A stretch of 64,000 nt of DNA from a bacterium (GTDB lineage Bacteria; UBA8248), in contig CBDBBI010000010.1 of NCBI GenBank assembly GCA_965202625.1, forward strand, positions 736,001 to 800,000, written 5' to 3'. A model generated the notes under the pieces. The model was given only the letters and a program-made list of their open reading frames with translations. It searched no databases and was not told where the DNA came from. Positions within the stretch are counted from its first letter, which is position 1. The number at the start of each line of letters is the position of its first letter. The position numbers were made by a program, and so were the translations under genes. Shown here piece by piece: positions 1,729 to 42,189 of this stretch.

Positions 1729-2592
1729 ATGTCGGCAGAAAACCCGAAAGGATATTCGAATCCCGACCTGCTCTGGTCGCCCGCGCAGCTGATGTGCCGC
1801 ATGGACGACCCCAGCCTGCGGATCGTGGACACGCGCCCCGGCGAGCGCTATGCGATGGGGCACATTCCCGGAGCGCGTCACTTCAACGTCTATGGCGTCA
1901 ACTGCGATGATTCGAGCGAGGCGACGCTCAAGAATTTTTTCAGCATGTGGGCATTTCTGTTGGGAAACCGGGGTGTGGGGTTCGAGAACGTCATCGTTTT
2001 CTACGACGACGTCCTCGGCCACACGAGCGCGCGCGGATTCTGGATGCTCGAGCTCTTCGGGCACAAGGACGTCCACGTACTCGACGGCGGCTACAGCGCA
2101 TGGGAGCGGGCGGGCTTCGAGACGACGCGCGACGCCCAGCCGCCCCAGCCCGTCGCCTTCGAGATGGCGTTTGAGCCAGAGCGTCTTGCCACGAGAGAGG
2201 ACGTGGCGCGCGCCATTGAGGATGACAACCACATCCTGCTCGACACCAGATCTCTGGAAGAGTGGGAGGCGAGGCGCGTCCTGGCAAAGCAAGGCGGAAT
2301 CATCCCCGGCGCCGTCTGGCAGGAATGGCTGCGGCACCTGACGCCCGAGGGTGAGATGAAGCCCGCCGATGCGTTGCGGGCGCAATTCGAAGAACTCGGA
2401 ATCACGCCCGACAAAGAGGTGACCGCCTACTGACAGACGGGCTACCGTGCGGCGCACGGTTATCTCGCCTTGCGGCTGCTGGATCATCCAAAGATGCGAA
2501 ACTACATGAGCTCCTGGAAGGAGTGGGGGAATCGGGAGGATACTCCCATCGCGCAGGCCAAGACCCAATCTCAGGGCGAACAGCGAGAATGA
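1729..2592 (+). CDS. Two-domain rhodanese/sulfurtransferase (TST/MST, SseA-like), probable selenoprotein with Sec at codon 235
   Basis: GHIPGA, LDGG, LLDTRS..E and GIIPGA motifs; in-frame TGA at 2431-2433 inside the active-site loop Y-[TGA]-QTGYRAAH; frame continues LALRLLDHPKMRNYMSSWKEWG to TGA at 2590-2592. Confidence 0.88.
2444..2460 (+). promoter_or_regulatory. Candidate bacterial SECIS hairpin
   Basis: ACCGTGC-GGC-GCACGGT perfect 7-bp stem, G-initiated loop 17 nt after the UGA. Confidence 0.7.
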
Positions 2593-4626: not shown

Positions 4627-5437
4627 GGAGGCGACTCCTCGGAAAAAACCACGCTCGATGCGGTGGAGGAGGTTCACCAAAGAAGGCGGCGTCGAACTGC
4701 TGCTCCTCATTACGGGCATTTTCCTCCTTTGGTCCCTCATCTCGCAGATCATCCCCAACCCGAGCCGCTACCTCCCCTCGCCCGTTTCCGTCGTCCTATC
4801 TTCCTACGACGTCATCTGGAAAGGTCTCCTGCCCAACTATATCGGGCAAACTCTTTGGCGTCTCCTCATCGGCAGCGCCATCGGCCTCCTGCTGGGCATT
4901 CCGTTTGGAATCGCTCTTGGTCTCAATCGCACGGTATCGGACATGTTCTACCCCATCATGAATTTCTTCCAGTCCATATCGGGCATCGCCATACTACCCA
5001 TCATCGTCGTCTGGTGGGGCAACAGCGAAAAGACGGTGTTCGCCGTCATCCTCTACACCTGTTTCTTCCCGATCACCTTCAACGTCCTGACGGGCGTGCG
5101 CAGCACCCCGATGATACTGGTGAACGCCCTGCGCACTCTGGGGGCCTCGCGTCTGCGAATCGTGAAGGACGTCCTCATTCCAAGCGCCATGCCCCACATC
5201 GCGACCGGGGCGAGGCTGGGCATCGGCTACGCCTGGCGCGCGGTCATCGCAGGCGAGATGCTCGCCGGCAGACGCGGCCTGGGGTGGATGATCTTCACCG
5301 CGCAGGACGCAGACCTCACCGCTCAGGTGATCCTCGGCATGGTGATGATTGGCGCCATCTGGATCATGATCGACCGCTTCGCCCTCCGCCCCATCGAGGC
5401 AGACACAATTCAGCGCTGGGGACTCGTGCAGCGATGA
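4613..5437 (+). CDS. ABC transporter permease (NitT/TauT)
   Basis: Hydrophobic helices, YLPSP, EAA-like loop ALRTLGAS, IAGEM. Confidence 0.92.
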   Translation: MRRSREATPRKKPRSMRWRRFTKEGGVELLLLITGIFLLWSLISQIIPNPSRYLPSPVSVVLSSYDVIWKGLLPNYIGQTLWRLLIGSAIGLLLGIPFGIALGLNRTVSDMFYPIMNFFQSISGIAILPIIVVWWGNSEKTVFAVILYTCFFPITFNVLTGVRSTPMILVNALRTLGASRLRIVKDVLIPSAMPHIATGARLGIGYAWRAVIAGEMLAGRRGLGWMIFTAQDADLTAQVILGMVMIGAIWIMIDRFALRPIEADTIQRWGLVQR

Positions 5438-6294
5438 GCGCCCTCCAGACGGCGACCATCGCCCTGCAAAAGCGCTTTGGCCGCCAAAGACTGCGAAAGA
5501 TCATGCTGGGCGCTGTCCCCTTCGTCTCCCTGCTCGCTTTGTGGCAGATGAACGCCGTCCTCGAATGGCTTCCGCCGGTATTCATTCCGCCTATCGCATC
5601 CATCTGGGAGGCGATATATACGCTCTCGGAGGGCTGCTCCGGCGTCGGCGGGGCACTCAGCATGCAGTATGAATGTCTCTTCACCAACCATATATTTTCA
5701 AGCCTGGGCCGCGTGGGGCTCAGCCTCCTCATCGGCATTCCTTTCGGGATCGCACTTGGCGTGCTGGCGGGCATGAGCCGCCGTTTTGCCCACGCCCTCG
5801 AGCCCATCGGCGTATTCGCTAATGCCATATCAGGCATCGCCTGGGTGCCCCTAGCCATCGTCTGGTTTGGAACCGGCTGGCTCACGACGCTTTTCATCCT
5901 GCTGAACACCGTCTTCTGGCTCGTATTCTTCAACACGCTTCTGGGCGTTCGGGGCGTGCCCCGGGTATATGAAAACTCCGTCATGACGCTCGGTGGCGGC
6001 AGGTGGGCCATCATCTCTCAGGTATATATTCCGGGCGCGCTTCCCAGCATCGTCACCGGAGTGCGCATGAGCATGGGGTTTGGATGGCGCGCGCTCATCG
6101 CTGCGGAAATGATAGGCGGCGACAGCGGCCTGGGCTTCATGATCTTCGTCTCCGCGGCTGAATACAAAATTGAGGAGGTGTTCCTGGGCGTTCTCATCAT
6201 CGCCGTCATCTGGATGATCACCGACAGACTGCTTCTCATTCCCCTGGAGAGATGGACCATCCAGAGATGGGGCATGGTATGGAGACCGTCCTAG
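5434..6294 (+). CDS. ABC transporter permease (NitT/TauT)
   Basis: ATGA overlap with the previous gene; TM helices, WRALIAAEMIGGDSGLG. Confidence 0.92.
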   Translation: MSALQTATIALQKRFGRQRLRKIMLGAVPFVSLLALWQMNAVLEWLPPVFIPPIASIWEAIYTLSEGCSGVGGALSMQYECLFTNHIFSSLGRVGLSLLIGIPFGIALGVLAGMSRRFAHALEPIGVFANAISGIAWVPLAIVWFGTGWLTTLFILLNTVFWLVFFNTLLGVRGVPRVYENSVMTLGGGRWAIISQVYIPGALPSIVTGVRMSMGFGWRALIAAEMIGGDSGLGFMIFVSAAEYKIEEVFLGVLIIAVIWMITDRLLLIPLERWTIQRWGMVWRPS

Positions 6295-6295
6295 A

Positions 6296-6664
6296 ATGAT
6301 GGATGATACCAGAGCCATCTTGAAGGGCGCGCTGGGCGATCGCCACTGGAGCCGGCACCCTACCGCGCGTTTTCTGATCGCCACCGCCCTTTTGTTCGGC
6401 CTGTATTATGGATACGGCTACGTGACAGCACCCTCGCGCCTCACCCCCGCCCTCAAAGCGCACCTGGCGACCAACGCGGGCAAGGTTGACCTGCTCGTCA
6501 CCTCGAAATTTCCGCCAGAAGAATTTCATATCCGCATCTATCAGGAGTTGGGCAGCATGCGCGGCGTGAAAGACTCGACAGCGAAGTTGGTCTCCGTCAC
6601 GCCCTCAGGTTTACGGACGCTCTCCCAGTATTATTGGGTAGAAAAAATAGATTTGAAGAAGTAA
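6296..6664 (+). CDS. Small membrane-anchored hypothetical protein
   Basis: Starts 1 nt after the permease stop; single TM segment, then a soluble domain with FPPEEFH. Confidence 0.7.
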   Translation: MMDDTRAILKGALGDRHWSRHPTARFLIATALLFGLYYGYGYVTAPSRLTPALKAHLATNAGKVDLLVTSKFPPEEFHIRIYQELGSMRGVKDSTAKLVSVTPSGLRTLSQYYWVEKIDLKK

Positions 6665-6899
6665 TAAAAGAATCGCAGTGGGTTGAACCCCGTCTTGGCA
6701 ATGGCATCTCACCCGACATATCGCCGTTATTCTCGGTGTAGCCAGACAAAAATAATTGGGAATTCGCGCAAAAATAATTGTGAATAGCCTAGTAAAACGG
6801 CCGTGCAAGGGCGTTGAAAAAGTCGTTCAAAGCAGATCGTCGAGCGAGATGGCAGCGGCGTTCACGTTCGTGCGCATGACGCGGCGATCGCCGCGCAAT

Positions 6900-7325
6900 T
6901 TACTCGCTCCTTTTATACAGATTTTCGAACGTGCCGTGGTCTTTCTCAACGTCCGCCATCTCGCGGAAGATTTCCTCATATCCCGGGGGGGAGAAAATCC
7001 AGACGAGTTTCAGGGGCGCGTCGCCCGTGTTCTTCAGGCCATGCTCTACGCCCACGGGCAAAAATGCGCTCATGCCCGACGTGACGTGGTATGCCTCGCC
7101 GTCCACCTCCAACTCGGCTTCGCCTTCGTGGAAGAAGAGGATTTCCTCCTCTCTCTCATGAATGTGGCGGGGAATTCCGCCGCCGACGGGAATGTCCTGA
7201 TTTCCCATGCTCAGCATTCGGGAACTCGTATTCCGGGGGTCGATCATGATACGCCAGCCCCGGGCCAGCTCCACCTCGCGCATCTCCAGCTTCTCACCAT
7301 CGTCCCAACCGAATACGTATGCCAT
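6900..7325 (-). CDS. Cupin domain protein
   Basis: HIH..EEILFFHEG and PVGVEHGLKNTG metal-binding motifs. Confidence 0.9.
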   Translation of the reverse strand: MAYVFGWDDGEKLEMREVELARGWRIMIDPRNTSSRMLSMGNQDIPVGGGIPRHIHEREEEILFFHEGEAELEVDGEAYHVTSGMSAFLPVGVEHGLKNTGDAPLKLVWIFSPPGYEEIFREMADVEKDHGTFENLYKRSE

Positions 7326-7454
7326 ATGAACACCCTCCCCCCCGGCCTTCGCACGCGAACGCGTGCGTCGCGCTCTGCATCCGAGACTACGCGAGACGAA
7401 CAGAAAGGCACACCGCTGAGACGGCGCGCCCTGAAACCTTCGCGGGAATAATGT

Positions 7455-8492
7455 TCAGGCTACTGCGGGGACGACTTCCTTGGCGAATCTTTCCAGCAAT
7501 TTAAGGGATTCCTCATGCTTCATTCCGTCACCATAGACGCCCAGAATCACGTGGTTCAGGCCAAAATCGTCCCTCAGCCGGTAGAGTTCCTGAACGTTCT
7601 CCTCCACGGAGCCAATGACGCCGCCGCCCTTCAGAAACTCGCGCACGTCGAGCTTGTAGCTCCAGTTTCTCTGGAGGTGCCTGCCCTCCTCGTCGCTGAA
7701 CTCCACCTCGTTCACTCTGGCGCGGTATTCGAGATAAGAAGAAAGGCCCTGCTCGAAGGTTTTCAGATAATCGACCTGCTCGTCATCCTCACAGACGTAG
7801 AAGCGATGCGTCATGGCATAGTCGATCTCGGACACGTCGCCCCCGGCCTCCGCCACGGCTTCTTCGTAGATCTTCATCTTCGAGCGATAGACTTCTGGTC
7901 CCTTGAAGCCGGCCGAGGCCATGATCTTAAACCCGTTGGTGCCGGCATAAGCGTAGGTTTCCGGGCTCGTGCCCGCCAACCAGATGGGCGGCCTCGGCTG
8001 TTGCAGAGGTTGGGGAAAAATCCGCACGTCCTTGCACTGGTAGTGCTCTCCCTCGAACGTCAGGTTCTCTCCCTCCAACAGCCTAGAGACGATCTCCAGT
8101 CCCTCCACGAGGCGCTTTCTGCTCTCCGATGGTTTCACGCCGAAAGTCTTGAACTCCTTGGGTTGGGAACCCCGGCCCACGCCCAGATCGAGCCGCCCGC
8201 CACTCAGCAAGTCAGCCATCGCCGCCTGCTCCGCCAAACGCACCGGATTGTGGAAGGGCATGATGGATATCGCCGTTCCCAGCCGGATATTTTTCGTCTT
8301 TTGGGCTACCGCCGCGCACAAAAGAAGCGGGTCGGGACACATACCCACTCTTGAGAAATGGTGTTCGGCGAACCAGACGCAATGATAGCCGAGCTCATCA
8401 GCCGCCTGGCATTGCTCCATCACCCTCCGGTAGGCATCCGCCTCGGACTCCTCCTCTCGGGGACATACCACGTAAAAAAGTGAAAATTTCAT
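7455..8492 (-). CDS. Luciferase-like (LLM class) flavin-dependent oxidoreductase
   Basis: WFAEHHF, IRLGTA, AEQAAMADLLSGGRLDLGVGRG, PQPLQQPRPPIW. Confidence 0.93.
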   Translation of the reverse strand: MKFSLFYVVCPREEESEADAYRRVMEQCQAADELGYHCVWFAEHHFSRVGMCPDPLLLCAAVAQKTKNIRLGTAISIMPFHNPVRLAEQAAMADLLSGGRLDLGVGRGSQPKEFKTFGVKPSESRKRLVEGLEIVSRLLEGENLTFEGEHYQCKDVRIFPQPLQQPRPPIWLAGTSPETYAYAGTNGFKIMASAGFKGPEVYRSKMKIYEEAVAEAGGDVSEIDYAMTHRFYVCEDDEQVDYLKTFEQGLSSYLEYRARVNEVEFSDEEGRHLQRNWSYKLDVREFLKGGGVIGSVEENVQELYRLRDDFGLNHVILGVYGDGMKHEESLKLLERFAKEVVPAVA

Positions 8493-8684: not shown

Positions 8685-9434
8685 ATGCGTTTCGAGGGCA
8701 GGACGATCATCGTCACAGGAGCGGGCGCGGGCATTGGCCGGGCGAGCGCGCTCAGACTCGCGCGCGAGGGCGCACACGTCGTTTGCATGGACGTCGCCGA
8801 ATCGCGCGAGGATACTGCCAGACGCATCAAAGAAGGCGGGGTTGGCGGCGCAAGCGCGGCGGCCCTCGACGTGGGCGATGCGGAGGGGGTGAAAAAAATT
8901 TTTCGGGAAACCATTCGGACGCACGGGCGGATCGACGGGCTCGTCAACTGCGTTGGCGGAGGCTCTCCCCTTCTGGCACTGGAAATTGACGAGCGGGCTT
9001 TCGACAAAATGTTCGAGCTGAACGTGAAAAGCGTCTATCGAGCCTGCTGGGCGGTACTGCCTCACATGCAAGAGCGAAAGGCCGGCAAAATCGTCAATTT
9101 CTCCTCCGTCGCGGGGCGCTCGGCCAGCGTGCTCCAGGGCCCGCATTACTCAAGCTCCAAAGCCGCCGTCATCGGCTTGACGCGCCACCTCGCCCGAGAG
9201 TTTGGCCCCCACAACGTCAACGTGAACGCCATCGCCCCAGGCGTCGTCGGCACAAAACGCATCCTTGCGCAAATGAGCGACGCACAAAGAAAAAAAACGG
9301 AAGCCGCCACGCCCCTGGGACGAATCGGTACGCCCGAGGATATCGCGGGCGTCGTCGCTTTTCTCGCCTCCGACGATGCTCGCCACGTCACCGGCGTCAC
9401 CATCGACGTGAACGGGGGCTTCTTTCTGGCCTAG
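8685..9434 (+). CDS. Short-chain dehydrogenase/reductase
   Basis: TGAGAGIG, YSSSK, VNAIAPG, IDVNGG; RBS GAGGAG. Confidence 0.92.
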   Translation: MRFEGRTIIVTGAGAGIGRASALRLAREGAHVVCMDVAESREDTARRIKEGGVGGASAAALDVGDAEGVKKIFRETIRTHGRIDGLVNCVGGGSPLLALEIDERAFDKMFELNVKSVYRACWAVLPHMQERKAGKIVNFSSVAGRSASVLQGPHYSSSKAAVIGLTRHLAREFGPHNVNVNAIAPGVVGTKRILAQMSDAQRKKTEAATPLGRIGTPEDIAGVVAFLASDDARHVTGVTIDVNGGFFLA

Positions 9435-18332: not shown

Positions 18333-20090
18333 TCATACTTCTCCTTGCCGCGTATACGCGACCTCACGTTTCGGGGTTGATGTGGGCACAGCCGTCTTCA
18401 ACGGGTCTTTCTCGAGCAAAATCTTGCCCTTCTCCCCCCGCGTAAGACGCGTCACAAAACTGCAATCTCTCTCATTCACCTCGGGGTAATCGATCCTGAA
18501 ATGCGCCCCTCGGCTCTCTTTCCTGTTCACGGCGGCGGTGGCGAGGAGTTTACCCAAAAGCGCCAGGTTTCTGACCGAAAGCGCGCTCTCCAGCTCATGT
18601 CCCCTTATTTTCTCCGACGCGCGCGCGCCCTCACCAAGACACATGTTTGGAACTTCCTCGCTCTCTATGCGTTCGAACTCATCCAGCGCATATTGACAGC
18701 CCCCGGCGTCCCGGATGGGCCCGAGTTTTTCATGCGCGAGCATCCGGCACCGCATGCGCACGTCCTTCTGGAGCGGCCCATCGTCCCGATGAACGAGCGC
18801 CTCCAACCAGGCGCGCTCTGATGCAGGAATACCCGCAAAAGTCGCCGACGCGCCTCGCGCATCCTCTTTTACCTGCGCGGAGGCCGCCCTACCCGCCCGC
18901 CTCCCATAGACCAAAGACGCGGAAAGCGCAGAGCCGCCAATTCTGTTTCCGCCGTGGATGCCGCCCCCCGTTTCGCCTGCGGCCCAAAGACCCGGCACGC
19001 TCGTTCCGCCGTCGACGTCGATCTCCAAGCCCCCGAGCCAAGTATGGCTGCCCGGCGCAACTTCGAGGGGCGTTCGGGTGATGTCGATGCCGCGAGCGAG
19101 GCACGTCTTATACACATGGGGGATTTGTTTTTGAATGGTCGTCATGGGGACTTGGGTCGCGTCCATATAAATGCCGCCCGTGAGACCCGCGCGACCTGCG
19201 TGAATTTCCTTCGCCATGGCGAGGATAACCTCGCTGCGCGCGCTTTTCTCCGCAGTTTCGGGGAAATAGCGCTTCAAGAACGCCTCCCCCTCCCGATTCA
19301 AAAATATGGCGCCCGCGTTGATGAACCCCGTGGGATGAGGAGCGAAGCCGAAAAGCGCCTCCGGCGCGCAGCACATGGCCTGAAAGTCGATCATTTCGAT
19401 GCCGACAAGAGGCGCGCCCGCCCTGAAACCCAAAACGTAGCCATCGCCCGTCACTTGCGGCGGATTGTCGTTGACATAAAAAAGGCCGCTTCCACCCCCC
19501 GTGGCCAAAATTACCTCGCGCGCGGCGAAAACCACGAGACGACCGTGGGAATAATCCACTCCCCATGCGCCCACGACGCGGCCTCCGTCGGTGATGAGGT
19601 CCACAATGGCCGTATGGGGATGTTGTCCGATTCGGGCATCGGAACGGAGCCTCCTGGATAGCGTCTTGGTGACCATGTTGCCCGTGGTGTCATGGTGATG
19701 AAGGGCGCGGGGATAGGTGTGGCTCGGAAACATTTTCAGGTCGAGCCCCCCTTCATCATCCGTTATGAATTCTGCGCCCCAGGCGCGCAGGTCACGCACG
19801 ACGTCAATGATGTCGTGGGTCCAGGTTTTCGCCAGATCCGGGTTGATGAGTTCTCCGCCATATTGGAGAACTTCTTGGAGATGAATCTCCGGACTATCGC
19901 CCGGAGCCATCGCCGCGGCGAAACCGCCTCTCGCCACGGTTGTCGTGCCGCTCGTGGCGCGGCCCTTGGTGGCCTGAATGACGCGCACCCCCGCTTGCGC
20001 ACACTCAAAAGCGGCCATCGTGCCCGCCGCGCCACCGCCCACGATGAGCACATCGGTCTCGTGCCGCTCCTCAGCTATGCTCCACTCCAT
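18333..20090 (-). CDS. FAD-binding oxidoreductase, SdhA/FrdA/NadB family
   Basis: GGGAAG, LATGG, HTWLGG, GLWAAGE..GGIHGGNRIGG, RKESRGAHFR.DYP. Confidence 0.9.
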   Translation of the reverse strand: MEWSIAEERHETDVLIVGGGAAGTMAAFECAQAGVRVIQATKGRATSGTTTVARGGFAAAMAPGDSPEIHLQEVLQYGGELINPDLAKTWTHDIIDVVRDLRAWGAEFITDDEGGLDLKMFPSHTYPRALHHHDTTGNMVTKTLSRRLRSDARIGQHPHTAIVDLITDGGRVVGAWGVDYSHGRLVVFAAREVILATGGGSGLFYVNDNPPQVTGDGYVLGFRAGAPLVGIEMIDFQAMCCAPEALFGFAPHPTGFINAGAIFLNREGEAFLKRYFPETAEKSARSEVILAMAKEIHAGRAGLTGGIYMDATQVPMTTIQKQIPHVYKTCLARGIDITRTPLEVAPGSHTWLGGLEIDVDGGTSVPGLWAAGETGGGIHGGNRIGGSALSASLVYGRRAGRAASAQVKEDARGASATFAGIPASERAWLEALVHRDDGPLQKDVRMRCRMLAHEKLGPIRDAGGCQYALDEFERIESEEVPNMCLGEGARASEKIRGHELESALSVRNLALLGKLLATAAVNRKESRGAHFRIDYPEVNERDCSFVTRLTRGEKGKILLEKDPLKTAVPTSTPKREVAYTRQGEV

Positions 20091-40008: not shown

Positions 40009-40788
40009 TCAGAACGATTGGCAGACTCCGGTAGCGATAAACCAGCATGAACGCACCCCTAACCAGAGCGACTTCAGCCTGCCACCGTCCAGGTTCAGAG
40101 ATACGCCAGTGATATAGCTCGCTCTTTCAGAGCAAAGAAAAACAATCGCATCCGCCAGCTCCTCAGGTTTGCCGAAGAGGCCAAGCCTTGGACGTTTCTC
40201 TTTCAGAGATCGGTATCCACCCAACCTGGACATACCGCGTTCACGTGAATCCCCCACTCCCCGAATTCCATGGACAGCGACTTCGTAATGTTCAAAAGAA
40301 CACTGTTCGTCATCCCGCTGCCAAACATATACGGATCGGGCTCCTTTCCCGCTTCCACGATGACGTTCAAAATGCGTCCCCACCCTCTGGCGCGCATCCC
40401 CGGGACGACCAAGCGTATGAGGCGTAGAAAACCAAACAGATTGGTGTCCAGTTGGGTTTACAAACGGACGTCGTCGAGCGCTTCGAATCCGCCAGAACGC
40501 ATTGTTCCAGCATTGTTCACCAAAATATCAACACCCCCCGTTTTCTCCTGCACACTTCTCACCAACGGCGCTAGATCGGCCTCATTCGCCGTGTCCGCTA
40601 CAGCAAAATGGATATCGCCTCCAGTTTCCTCCGCCAGTTCCGCGCAAGTCTCGATGAGGGCGTCTTGATTTCTCGCGCAAATAAAAAACCCTTGCTCCTT
40701 CTTCCAAAAGGCGTCTGGCCGTCTGCAGACCGATGCCTCAGCTGCCACCCGTCACCAAGGCCAATGTTCCCTTTATGCCCAATTCCAC
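40009..40788 (-). pseudogene. Decayed SDR oxidoreductase
   Basis: MELGIKGTLALVTGGS-[TGA 40738]-GIG, then frameshifts separating [20 protein letters not shown] and [14 protein letters not shown] into different frames. Confidence 0.85.
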
Positions 40789-40854: not shown

Positions 40855-41454
40855 TCAGCCTACGGCCTCCGACGCTTCCTCAACCTCATCCCACGTTTGC
40901 CATCTCACGATATCGTCTGCGGCTTCCACCGGATTATGCAACCCGTCCTGCAAACGGTTCCAAGCGTTGAACAAGCAGGTAAACAACGTTAATTCAACAA
41001 TATCTTTTTCATTGAAAAACTCTTTCAACGGCGCAAACGAGGCATCGTCAGAGGGCGCGGTGTTCTTCGTCAAGGCCGTTGCCCAGCGAATCACCGCTTT
41101 TTCTTTCTCGTCAAATAAATGGCTGTCTTCCCATCCCTCAACTATCAAAACGATGTGCTCATCTCTCAAACCCGCAGCTTGACCAAGCTTCACGTTGTGG
41201 TTCGTTCATATCTCGCAATCGTTGATGAGGGAAGGCGTAAGAATCGCCAACTGCATCAAACGCATTCTGGCTGGTTCCGCCCGCCATTGGCTTCTCAGCG
41301 CCACCGTCAGGTTGATGATATGTCGCAGCGCTTCAGGTGAATGTCCCAATGCGCGGTAGAAACTGGGCACCGTGCCCCACGTTTTTCTTGATTTTTCAAA
41401 CAACGGCTCATGGGTGCCCTTGGCATGGTCAGATATTGGCGTGATTCTCGGCAT
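40855..41454 (-). CDS. AhpD/carboxymuconolactone decarboxylase family peroxidase, probable selenoprotein (C80-x-x-U83)
   Basis: ORFs 41206..41454 and 40855..41193 are in the same frame, joined through TGA: NDCEI-[TGA]-TNH; GTVPSFYRALGHSP at the N-terminus and EKAVIRWA..LT, IVELT..FNAWNR in the C-terminal half. Confidence 0.85.
41173..41194 (-). promoter_or_regulatory. Candidate bacterial SECIS hairpin
   Basis: CGU-GA-AGCUU-GGUC-AAGCU-GCG, starting 12 nt after the UGA; GGUC loop as in the E. coli fdhF SECIS. Confidence 0.68.
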
Positions 41455-41627
41455 CTTCAGCTCCTTGTTCTATGAAGGTTCGCACAAAATTTTGCGCGAG
41501 CACTTTTTGCTGCTGGAGTAGATTTTAGTAGGTTTCGATGAACACTACCATCAAAATCGAAATTGGCTTTACGAGCCTATCCCTGTCATAAGGCAACATT
41601 CCACACATCCGATAAGGGAAAATCCTA

Positions 41628-42189
41628 ATGAAAGATGAAAAAATTCTTATCATCGCCGCGCATATAGATGGCACCGAGTTTCGCTCCACACACTCCGTCG
41701 CCAAGTCAATGAGCAAGGGCCCGCCACATGGGGTATTCCCCAGCCACGAGCGGAGACAAGGGTGTGAATCGGCATCGCTCGAGAAGGATCTCCATTGATG
41801 AGAAAAGAGCGATTTGAGAAGTCGAGCGAAATCGGCAACGGCGTTCGTTAGCTCCACCACGGCACTCATCCCGCCATTGCGAAAGCGACTTTCGACCGCT
41901 TTACCAATGAAAATTGCTCTCCGGAACTGCTTGCGAAAGGCACCGATCCGCCCAAGCCCCAAGAAGCATATTTTGGAAGGATTCGAAATGCCGACGTATG
42001 GTGAATCTTACAAATACGTTCGGCCTTAAAAATAGAAGCGCTGACGTGTCACAAGAGCCAACTCGGCGCCGTGAACATGGAAGACATAATTTCCTGATTT
42101 CCCTTTTGCGCGACTGGACAAAACACGCGGGCGAGAGGGACAACCTTGAGTACGCCGAGTGTTACCGCCGCATGGAAGTCCCGCAATAA
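41628..42189 (+). pseudogene. Decayed PIG-L/LmbE family deacetylase
   Basis: ILIIAAHIDGTEF, ATSGDKG, VNLTNTFGLK/KIEALTCHKSQ and EYAECYRR scattered over different frames with stops. Confidence 0.8.

Follow-up and report, generated by a model that had tools for sequence, protein, structure and literature searches.

AhpD-like selenoproteins with a CxxU motif (U, selenocysteine, Sec) are among the described families of bacterial selenoproteins. Twenty-seven Sargasso Sea sequences, placed under COG2128, are listed in a 2005 survey (PMC1088965). The Global Ocean Sampling (GOS) data contain the family as 'AhpD-like 1', with 299 sequences and 902 Cys homologs (PMC2398784; 2008). A 2026 review tabulates an AhpD-like selenoprotein under TIGR01926 (PMC13188914) and AhpD-like is a browsable family in BSepDB (PMC13326102). 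The gene described here lies on the minus strand of a 64,000-nucleotide stretch of DNA (contig CBDBBI010000010.1 of assembly GCA_965202625.1, positions 736,001 to 800,000) from a bacterium of the GTDB lineage UBA8248. This whole stretch is referred to as the window and all coordinates are positions within it. The gene was assigned, with high confidence, as encoding a 199-residue all-helical AhpD-like thiol/selenol oxidoreductase of the carboxymuconolactone decarboxylase (CMD) fold, in which the UGA at codon 83 is read as selenocysteine.

The coding sequence spans 40855..41454 and comprises 199 codons and a terminal TGA (40857..40855). A Shine-Dalgarno-like AAGGAG was read from the sequence at 41461..41466, 6 nt 5' of the ATG (41454..41452). 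The only other in-frame TGA is at 41206..41208 and is codon 83. With this TGA translated as U the central part of the product reads S-L-I-N-D-C80-E-I-U83-T-N-H86-N-V-K-L-G-Q. The initial annotation had noted two open reading frames (ORFs) of 82 and 112 amino acids in one frame, split by a single TGA to give C-E-I-U-T-N-H, and this arrangement was seen in the sequence of the minus strand. With its TGA, the 82-amino-acid ORF spans 41454..41206. The 112-amino-acid ORF is 41193..40855 and has a GTG start. The spacer between them consists of the single TGA and four sense codons (T-N-H-N). The codon of Cys80, the proposed resolving Cys of the CxxU motif, is TGC at 41215..41217, and the codon of His86 of the CxxUxxH motif is at 41197..41199.

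A full HMMER scan for protein relatives returned 1692 at E <= 0.001. An earlier word-index search had given 2 matches. When aligned to homologs, the TGA at codon 83 falls on the second Cys of CxxCxxH. All 16 full-length homologs of alignment A1 have Cys in this column, mostly inside CxxCxxH, and the column is among only four nearly invariant ones of a 77-sequence alignment. Related loci were collected by one scan of genome contigs, using two search patterns derived from a 3-sequence C-terminal alignment. This yielded 80 loci. One of the two patterns, FNAWNRLQDG, is a signature of a Nitrospinota-labelled clade. The close orthologs (L001-L027) are 57-86% identical to the window gene over the C-terminal part and are labelled Nitrospinota, Nitrospinaceae or 'bacterium', from metagenome-assembled genomes (MAGs).

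All 27 close orthologs share the architecture of the window gene. TGA is found at codon 83 in every one of them, with exactly 82 codons upstream, 109-130 codons downstream and no further lesion. The genes themselves terminate in TAG, TAA or TGA. Together with the window gene, TGC or TGT at codon 80 and CAC or CAT at codon 86 are present in 28/28. Across the 80 related loci the codon at the Sec column was TGA in 49 and TGC or TGT in 26. It was unscorable in the remaining 5, where the register was lost by extrapolation across gaps and a CxxC is nearby in 4. Sec forms were also found in loci labelled Burkholderiales, Betaproteobacteria, Rokubacteria, Acidobacteria, Bryobacteraceae, Vulcanimicrobiota and Streptomycetaceae. 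A TGA unique to this genome had been named as one outcome that would undo the selenoprotein reading, and the result was the opposite.

A paralogous Sec AhpD-like gene was also observed. It has a C-N-N-U motif, is ~43% identical and carries the same type of GGUC stem-loop. It was matched near positions 5001 of L028, 4861 of L029, 5001 of L030, 2384 of L035 and 3481 of L037. L028, L029, L030 and L037 share MAGs with the orthologs L002, L016, L003 and L006. L035 is in a further Nitrospinota MAG.

The initial annotation had cautioned that the TGA could be a nonsense mutation, which would make the gene a pseudogene like both of its neighbours. Both neighbours are decayed and short broken ORFs abound around 40-42 kb. 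However, the identical TGA occurs in 27/27 orthologs, whose synonymous distances have reached saturation. The ratio of nonsynonymous to synonymous substitution rates (dN/dS) between the window and its 16 closest orthologs was 0.042-0.114 for the N-terminal half (16/16 computed). Past the TGA, for the C-terminal half, it was 0.026-0.046 (7/16 computed; the remaining 9 had saturated dS). As first noted from the sequence, the gene has no other lesion, and neither a frameshift nor a second stop was found in it or in its 27 orthologs. The LmbE/PIG-L pseudogene next to it is 37-58% identical to its ortholog in L003, compared to 86% for the C-terminal part of the AhpD-like gene. The AhpD-like gene is taken to be under selection because it is intact while both flanking genes have decayed. 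The conservation of the TGA and the purifying selection downstream of it rule out the caveat as it was raised, and a nonsense mutation is considered highly improbable.

Codon usage around the TGA was constrained. Synonymous-site entropy over the 28 sequences was minimal over codons 80-95 (0.31-0.42 compared to 0.65 gene-wide), and a permutation test for codons 82-96 gave p = 0.0003. Gly91 is GGT in 28/28 sequences while Gly95 uses four codons. Gln92 is CAA in 23/23. The Ile82 codon directly 5' of the UGA (41209-41211, minus strand) is ATA in 26/26 Ile-bearing sequences, Ile71 is ATT or ATC in 27/28 and Thr84 is ACG in 21/28. The ATA before the UGA and the flanking codon bias suggest nucleotide-level context constraints around the UGA.

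The two ORFs were also considered as two separate genes of 82 and 112 residues, the second starting at the GTG at 41193, with products that assemble after translation. A GTG is indeed available four codons past the TGA, and public gene calls split the relatives in the same way. The public protein P0005, of 82 amino acids and 88% identical, stops precisely at ...NDCEI, and there are many C-terminal fragments. P0083 and P0135 begin directly after the Sec column. Codon 88 is GTG in only 2/28 sequences, however, and the other codons at this position (GTC, GTA, GTT, AAG, AAA, CAA and CAG) are not start codons. The start of the 112-codon ORF is thus not conserved. The T-N-H-N codons that precede the GTG are conserved, including that of the catalytic His86, and a split at this point would sever the CxxCxxH motif. 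Two separate genes are therefore regarded as extremely improbable. In annotation the gene and its 27 orthologs are best entered as one 199-residue selenoprotein, neither as two ORFs nor as a pseudogene.

Public gene calls were observed to hold relatives either as split halves (P0005, P0006 and the many C-terminal fragments) or as frameshifted reads. P0003 and P0025 are of the latter type. Their alternative frame (..DMNEPQ.. and ..HMNGPQ..) implies ..ATA TGA AC.. in the DNA. With relatives stored in these forms, selenoprotein annotation of the family is deficient in these public collections.

Directly 3' of the UGA a hairpin is predicted at 41167..41204 (minus strand). In the minimum free energy fold it consists of a basal stem, an internal loop, a CGU/GCG stem, a GA bulge and an apical stem-loop. 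The basal stem CGAACC/GGUUUG starts 1 nt past the UGA, and the CGU/GCG stem lies under the 2-nt GA bulge. The apical stem-loop is at 41176..41189. Its 5' arm is AGCUU (41189..41185), its loop is GGUC (41184..41181) and its 3' arm is AAGCU (41180..41176). The fold thus reproduced the AGCUU-GGUC-AAGCU hairpin with a lower CGU/GCG stem that had been picked out 3' of the TGA by the initial annotation.

An RNA alignment of the 60 nt from the TGA, comprising the window and 41 Sec-form loci, was gap-free. All five apical pairs form in 41/41 distinct Sec-form sequences and the GGUC loop is invariant. Two of the pairs covary. Pair 20-33 is AU in 24 sequences, GC in 8, UA in 8 and UG in 1, and pair 24-29 is UA in 31 and CG in 10. 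The covarying pairs join the second codon position of residue 89 with the Ala93 wobble position, and the Leu90 wobble position with the Q/R92 replacement. The covariation score of the whole window-derived structure was 0.268 compared to a shuffled mean of 0.141, and was reached by 0/500 shuffles. Paired cells over the whole structure amounted to 76.5% compared to at most 54% for slid partners, a control in which the tested structure is favoured as it was taken from the window's own fold. The hairpin with its GGTC loop was present in 41/49 Sec-form loci and in 0/26 Cys-form loci, where at most 3/5 of the pairs could form.

Several results count against this hairpin as a selenocysteine insertion sequence (SECIS). 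The fold of 76 nt of the window sequence was unremarkable against shuffled sequences (z = 0.08). GGTC sites closed by five pairs numbered 2/311 in the window, where 2.3 were expected. Since the fold is unremarkable in the window alone, its significance comes wholly from the comparison with relatives. In that comparison, pairs changed on both sides (6, compared to 5.9 in shuffles; 355/500) and further pair types (17, compared to 20.1 in shuffles; 497/500) were not above chance. Conservation is poor in the lower stems, where helix 1 reaches 67.9% pairing and 22, 17 and 28 of the 41 sequences form pairs 15-36, 16-35 and 17-34, respectively. RNAalifold retains the apical stem only. The hairpin also overlaps the codons of a conserved L-G-Q/R-A peptide, so part of its sequence conservation is at the protein level. 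No Rfam family reached the gathering threshold in the window, and the local 161 nt gave chance-level matches only (E 6.5 and 8.8).

On the question of conservation the apical stem-loop therefore stood, being paired in 41/41 sequences, with covariation at two pairs and an invariant GGUC, and the lower CGU/GCG stem, with 17-28/41 per pair, did not. A stem-loop directly 3' of the UGA, with G and U in its apical loop, conserved and covarying, is the mark of a bacterial SECIS and was found here. The well supported part is the apical five base pairs and the loop. Eight of the 49 Sec-form loci (L053, L055, L058, L060-L062, L064 and L074) have no GGUC stem-loop at these columns. They are labelled Rokubacteria, Bryobacteraceae, Acidobacteria, Burkholderiales/Betaproteobacteria and Vulcanimicrobiota. 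These eight loci presumably carry a differently placed SECIS.

UGA is used as an ordinary stop in the window. Fifteen of the 37 family-supported ORFs end in TGA, including the AhpD-like gene itself. A systematic scan of the window gave 114 places with a TGA flanked on both sides by an open stretch of 45 codons or more, and these were examined for a family match at a threshold of 1e-4. A family match crosses the TGA in only two of them, a rhodanese (at 1e-4) and the AhpD-like gene (CMD E = 0.003). A genetic code in which UGA is a sense codon throughout the genome (table 4 or 25) was also considered, and nothing specific spoke for it. With so many family-supported ORFs ending at TGA, and only two of the 114 places bridged by a family match, such a code is considered next to inconceivable.

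The rhodanese is a second selenoprotein candidate. It is a two-domain sulfurtransferase encoded at 1729..2589 on the plus strand, with an in-frame TGA (2431..2433) at the position of the catalytic Cys, and the Pfam Rhodanese match spans the TGA. In an alignment to Azotobacter vinelandii RhdA (1e0c, 1.6e-45) the TGA (TAY-U-QTGYRA) is opposite the catalytic Cys of the CQT..R loop, and ~40 further residues are aligned past it. The rhodanese is probably the first read-through gene implied by the initial annotation, which called the AhpD-like gene the second. A 'UxxG' form of rhodanese selenoprotein is listed in PMC13188914, and the U-Q-T-G of the window fits this form. A possible hairpin, ACCGUGC-GGC-GCACGGU, was seen by eye 13 nt downstream of the rhodanese TGA; the minimum free energy fold differs. 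Taken together, the rhodanese and the AhpD-like gene make it very probable that UGA is decoded as Sec in this organism. This bears on the reading of all other TGA-interrupted genes of the genome.

The search for the Sec machinery weighs on the other side. No selA, selB, selC or selD was found within the 64-kb window. Scans for tRNA genes in the window and in 32 related loci were negative. tblastn with Escherichia coli SelA, SelB and SelD gave no match in the window, and among the 80 loci the only match was to SelB residues 2-221 in L072. L072 is a Cys-form locus. The match is confined to this N-terminal part of SelB and was set aside as uninformative.

Given that this machinery was not seen within the window, the UGA could be used without Sec, either by near-cognate insertion of Trp or Cys or by regulated termination giving an 82-residue peptide, with the hairpin as a read-through stimulator only. 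Against this, the UGA falls on the catalytic second Cys of a CxxC, the classic site of Sec/Cys exchange, and the SelB-binding element of fdhF has a matching loop at a matching spacing. An 82-residue product would, on the structural model, miss over half of the fold. The family is moreover a documented selenoprotein family. PMC13326102 gives 54 selenoprotein genes for the MAG that is the source of L016 and L029, and 50 and 48 for two more MAGs from this GTDB phylum (UBA8248). Use of the UGA without Sec was judged very unlikely. We infer that the gene depends on SelB and that selenium is incorporated into its product.

The protein family was examined by sequence and by structure prediction. A search of PDB sequences matched proteins of the AhpD core, namely 2gmy (Agrobacterium tumefaciens Atu0492, 6.5e-17), 7xw1, 2ijc and 2o4d (Pseudomonas aeruginosa), 6k40 (Deinococcus radiodurans AhpD) and Bmp8 (6ohi). 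The CxxC of these matches aligns to C80/U83. An AlphaFold model built from the 77-sequence alignment was all-helical, with a predicted local distance difference test score (pLDDT) of 92.6 and a predicted template modelling score (pTM) of 0.87. In the model C80 is just before helix 81-93, at its N-cap, and U83 is in the first turn of this helix. Foldseek with the model gave a probability of 1.00 to 2gmy, 6k40, 7xw1, 2prr and 6ohi. The model therefore places the product in the AhpD-like/CMD structural superfamily, with an all-helical AhpD-core fold and a CxxC(U)xxH motif at a helix N-terminus. C-E-I-U is an instance of the CxxU motif of the 'AhpD-like 1' selenoprotein family.

The scores of curated family models speak against this assignment. 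The Pfam match to CMD (PF02627) was weak and below the gathering threshold (E = 0.003, 18 bits compared to 23). The best NCBIfam match was TIGR01926, 'peroxidase-related enzyme' (3.7e-14), which spans residues 9-175 of 199 and scored 52.9 compared to a cut-off of 81.8. NF053654, a YciW-related (seleno)protein family, scored 48.9 compared to a curated cut-off of 310 and NF041238 (AhpD_rel_CFYUT) scored 15.5 compared to 175. Every matching curated family model scored the gene product under its cut-off. Membership of the CMD superfamily is accordingly based on the PDB sequence matches (2gmy in particular) and the fold, not on the Pfam score. With the Sec/Cys alignment, these bear out the proposal of an AhpD/CMD-type protein with a CxxU motif in the initial annotation.

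A mechanism can be proposed by analogy. A SelB-type factor with Sec-tRNA(Sec) would recognise the GGUC-capped stem-loop 17-30 nt downstream of the UGA. Delivery of Sec to the ribosome would then compete with release factor 2. The terminal UGA of the gene has no such hairpin and would direct normal termination. The two Cys and the His of Mycobacterium tuberculosis AhpD have the residue roles on which the catalytic analogy is based. By this analogy Sec83 may be the nucleophile, attacking an oxidised partner (a peroxiredoxin sulfenate or a disulfide) or a hydroperoxide. Cys80 could resolve the intermediate as a selenenylsulfide, and His86 could act as general base.

Both neighbours of the gene had been called pseudogenes from the sequence alone, and this was upheld. 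The downstream neighbour is a short-chain dehydrogenase (SDR) pseudogene at 40009..40748 (minus strand). It is in three frames, and its fragments match positions 21-98, 119-186 and 194-234 of the profile. L007 has an intact SDR at the same position (5342-6358), and in L003 the SDR is absent. The upstream neighbour is a divergent LmbE/PIG-L deacetylase pseudogene at 41628..42189 (plus strand). It was matched as four high-scoring segment pairs in three frames, two of them with in-frame stops, and its AHPDD motif is changed to AHIDG. LmbE/PIG-L is intact and divergent beside the Sec-AhpD gene in L001, L003, L007, L016 and L018. The neighbours differ in L024, L026 and L027.

The gene context gives a further point against an AhpC-coupled role. 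No peroxiredoxin was found among the annotated ORFs of the window, nor beside the gene in the eight relatives just named. A role as AhpC reductase is thus unsupported by context. PIG-L enzymes make mycothiol and bacillithiol. The product may then be not an AhpC reductase but a selenol enzyme acting on another substrate, either as a partner in a low-molecular-weight-thiol pathway or as a reductive dehalogenase like Bmp8, and the invariant ATA codon may reflect a need for a particular upstream context in Sec insertion in this lineage. This proposal is based on scores under all AhpD-like cut-offs, the missing peroxiredoxin neighbour and the LmbE/PIG-L neighbour in five closer relatives. It is put forward tentatively and considered unlikely.

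Other TGA-split sites of the window were rejected as read-through candidates. Those at 18335, 58691 and 7457 are adjacent genes in one frame. The candidate at 9152 (minus strand) runs antisense to an SDR gene and matched no family. At ~6903-7454 (minus strand) a cupin-domain ORF lies beyond the TGA stop of a luciferase-like monooxygenase (7455-8492), with which it shares a frame. No family matched the 231-amino-acid plus-strand ORF at 6756-7451, which is probably spurious.

The selenoprotein reading of the AhpD-like gene can be compared with known systems. The initial annotation had likened the loop to that of fdhF, correctly, as E. coli K-12 fdhF also has GGUC. In both, GGUC is the apical tetraloop, GGU is an in-frame codon and the stem-loop lies within the coding sequence just past the UGA. 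The window fold also has a bulge on the 5' side below the upper stem, as in fdhF; this bulge is not conserved among the orthologs. Unlike in fdhF, the loop is at nt 25-28 from the U of the UGA compared to nt 22-25, one codon further. The upper stem in the window is also unlike the fdhF arrangement, having 5 bp (AGCUU/AAGCU), and its recognition by SelB is putative.

The product resembles AhpD of M. tuberculosis and the proteins of 6k40, 7xw1 (PA0269) and 2gmy (Atu0492) in its all-helical CMD fold and in a CxxCxxH-type motif at a helix N-terminus. It differs from the AhpD-core proteins of solved structure in having Sec for the second Cys and no ahpC or peroxiredoxin neighbour that was found, and its identity to them is 20-31%. 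Bmp8 debrominase (6ohi/6ohj), a thiol-dependent reductive dehalogenase of the CMD fold, has the same fold (Foldseek E 9e-6, template modelling score (TMq) 0.74; phmmer 1.1e-5). Unlike the likeness in fold, identity to Bmp8 is only 17-19%, and a halogenated substrate is without support here.

In motif and genetic arrangement the gene resembles the AhpD-like CxxU family described by Zhang, Gladyshev and co-workers. The shared features include Sec at the second Cys, widespread Cys homologs, a SECIS hairpin directly downstream and an origin in marine or environmental bacteria. TIGR01926 is the best NCBIfam match of the gene product, although with the score below its cut-off given above, and FNAWNRLQDG sets its clade apart. 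The orthologs may already be catalogued in BSepDB. The family, the CxxU motif and the rich selenoproteome of the lineage are already in print, and the gene adds one member to a selenoprotein family known since 2005.

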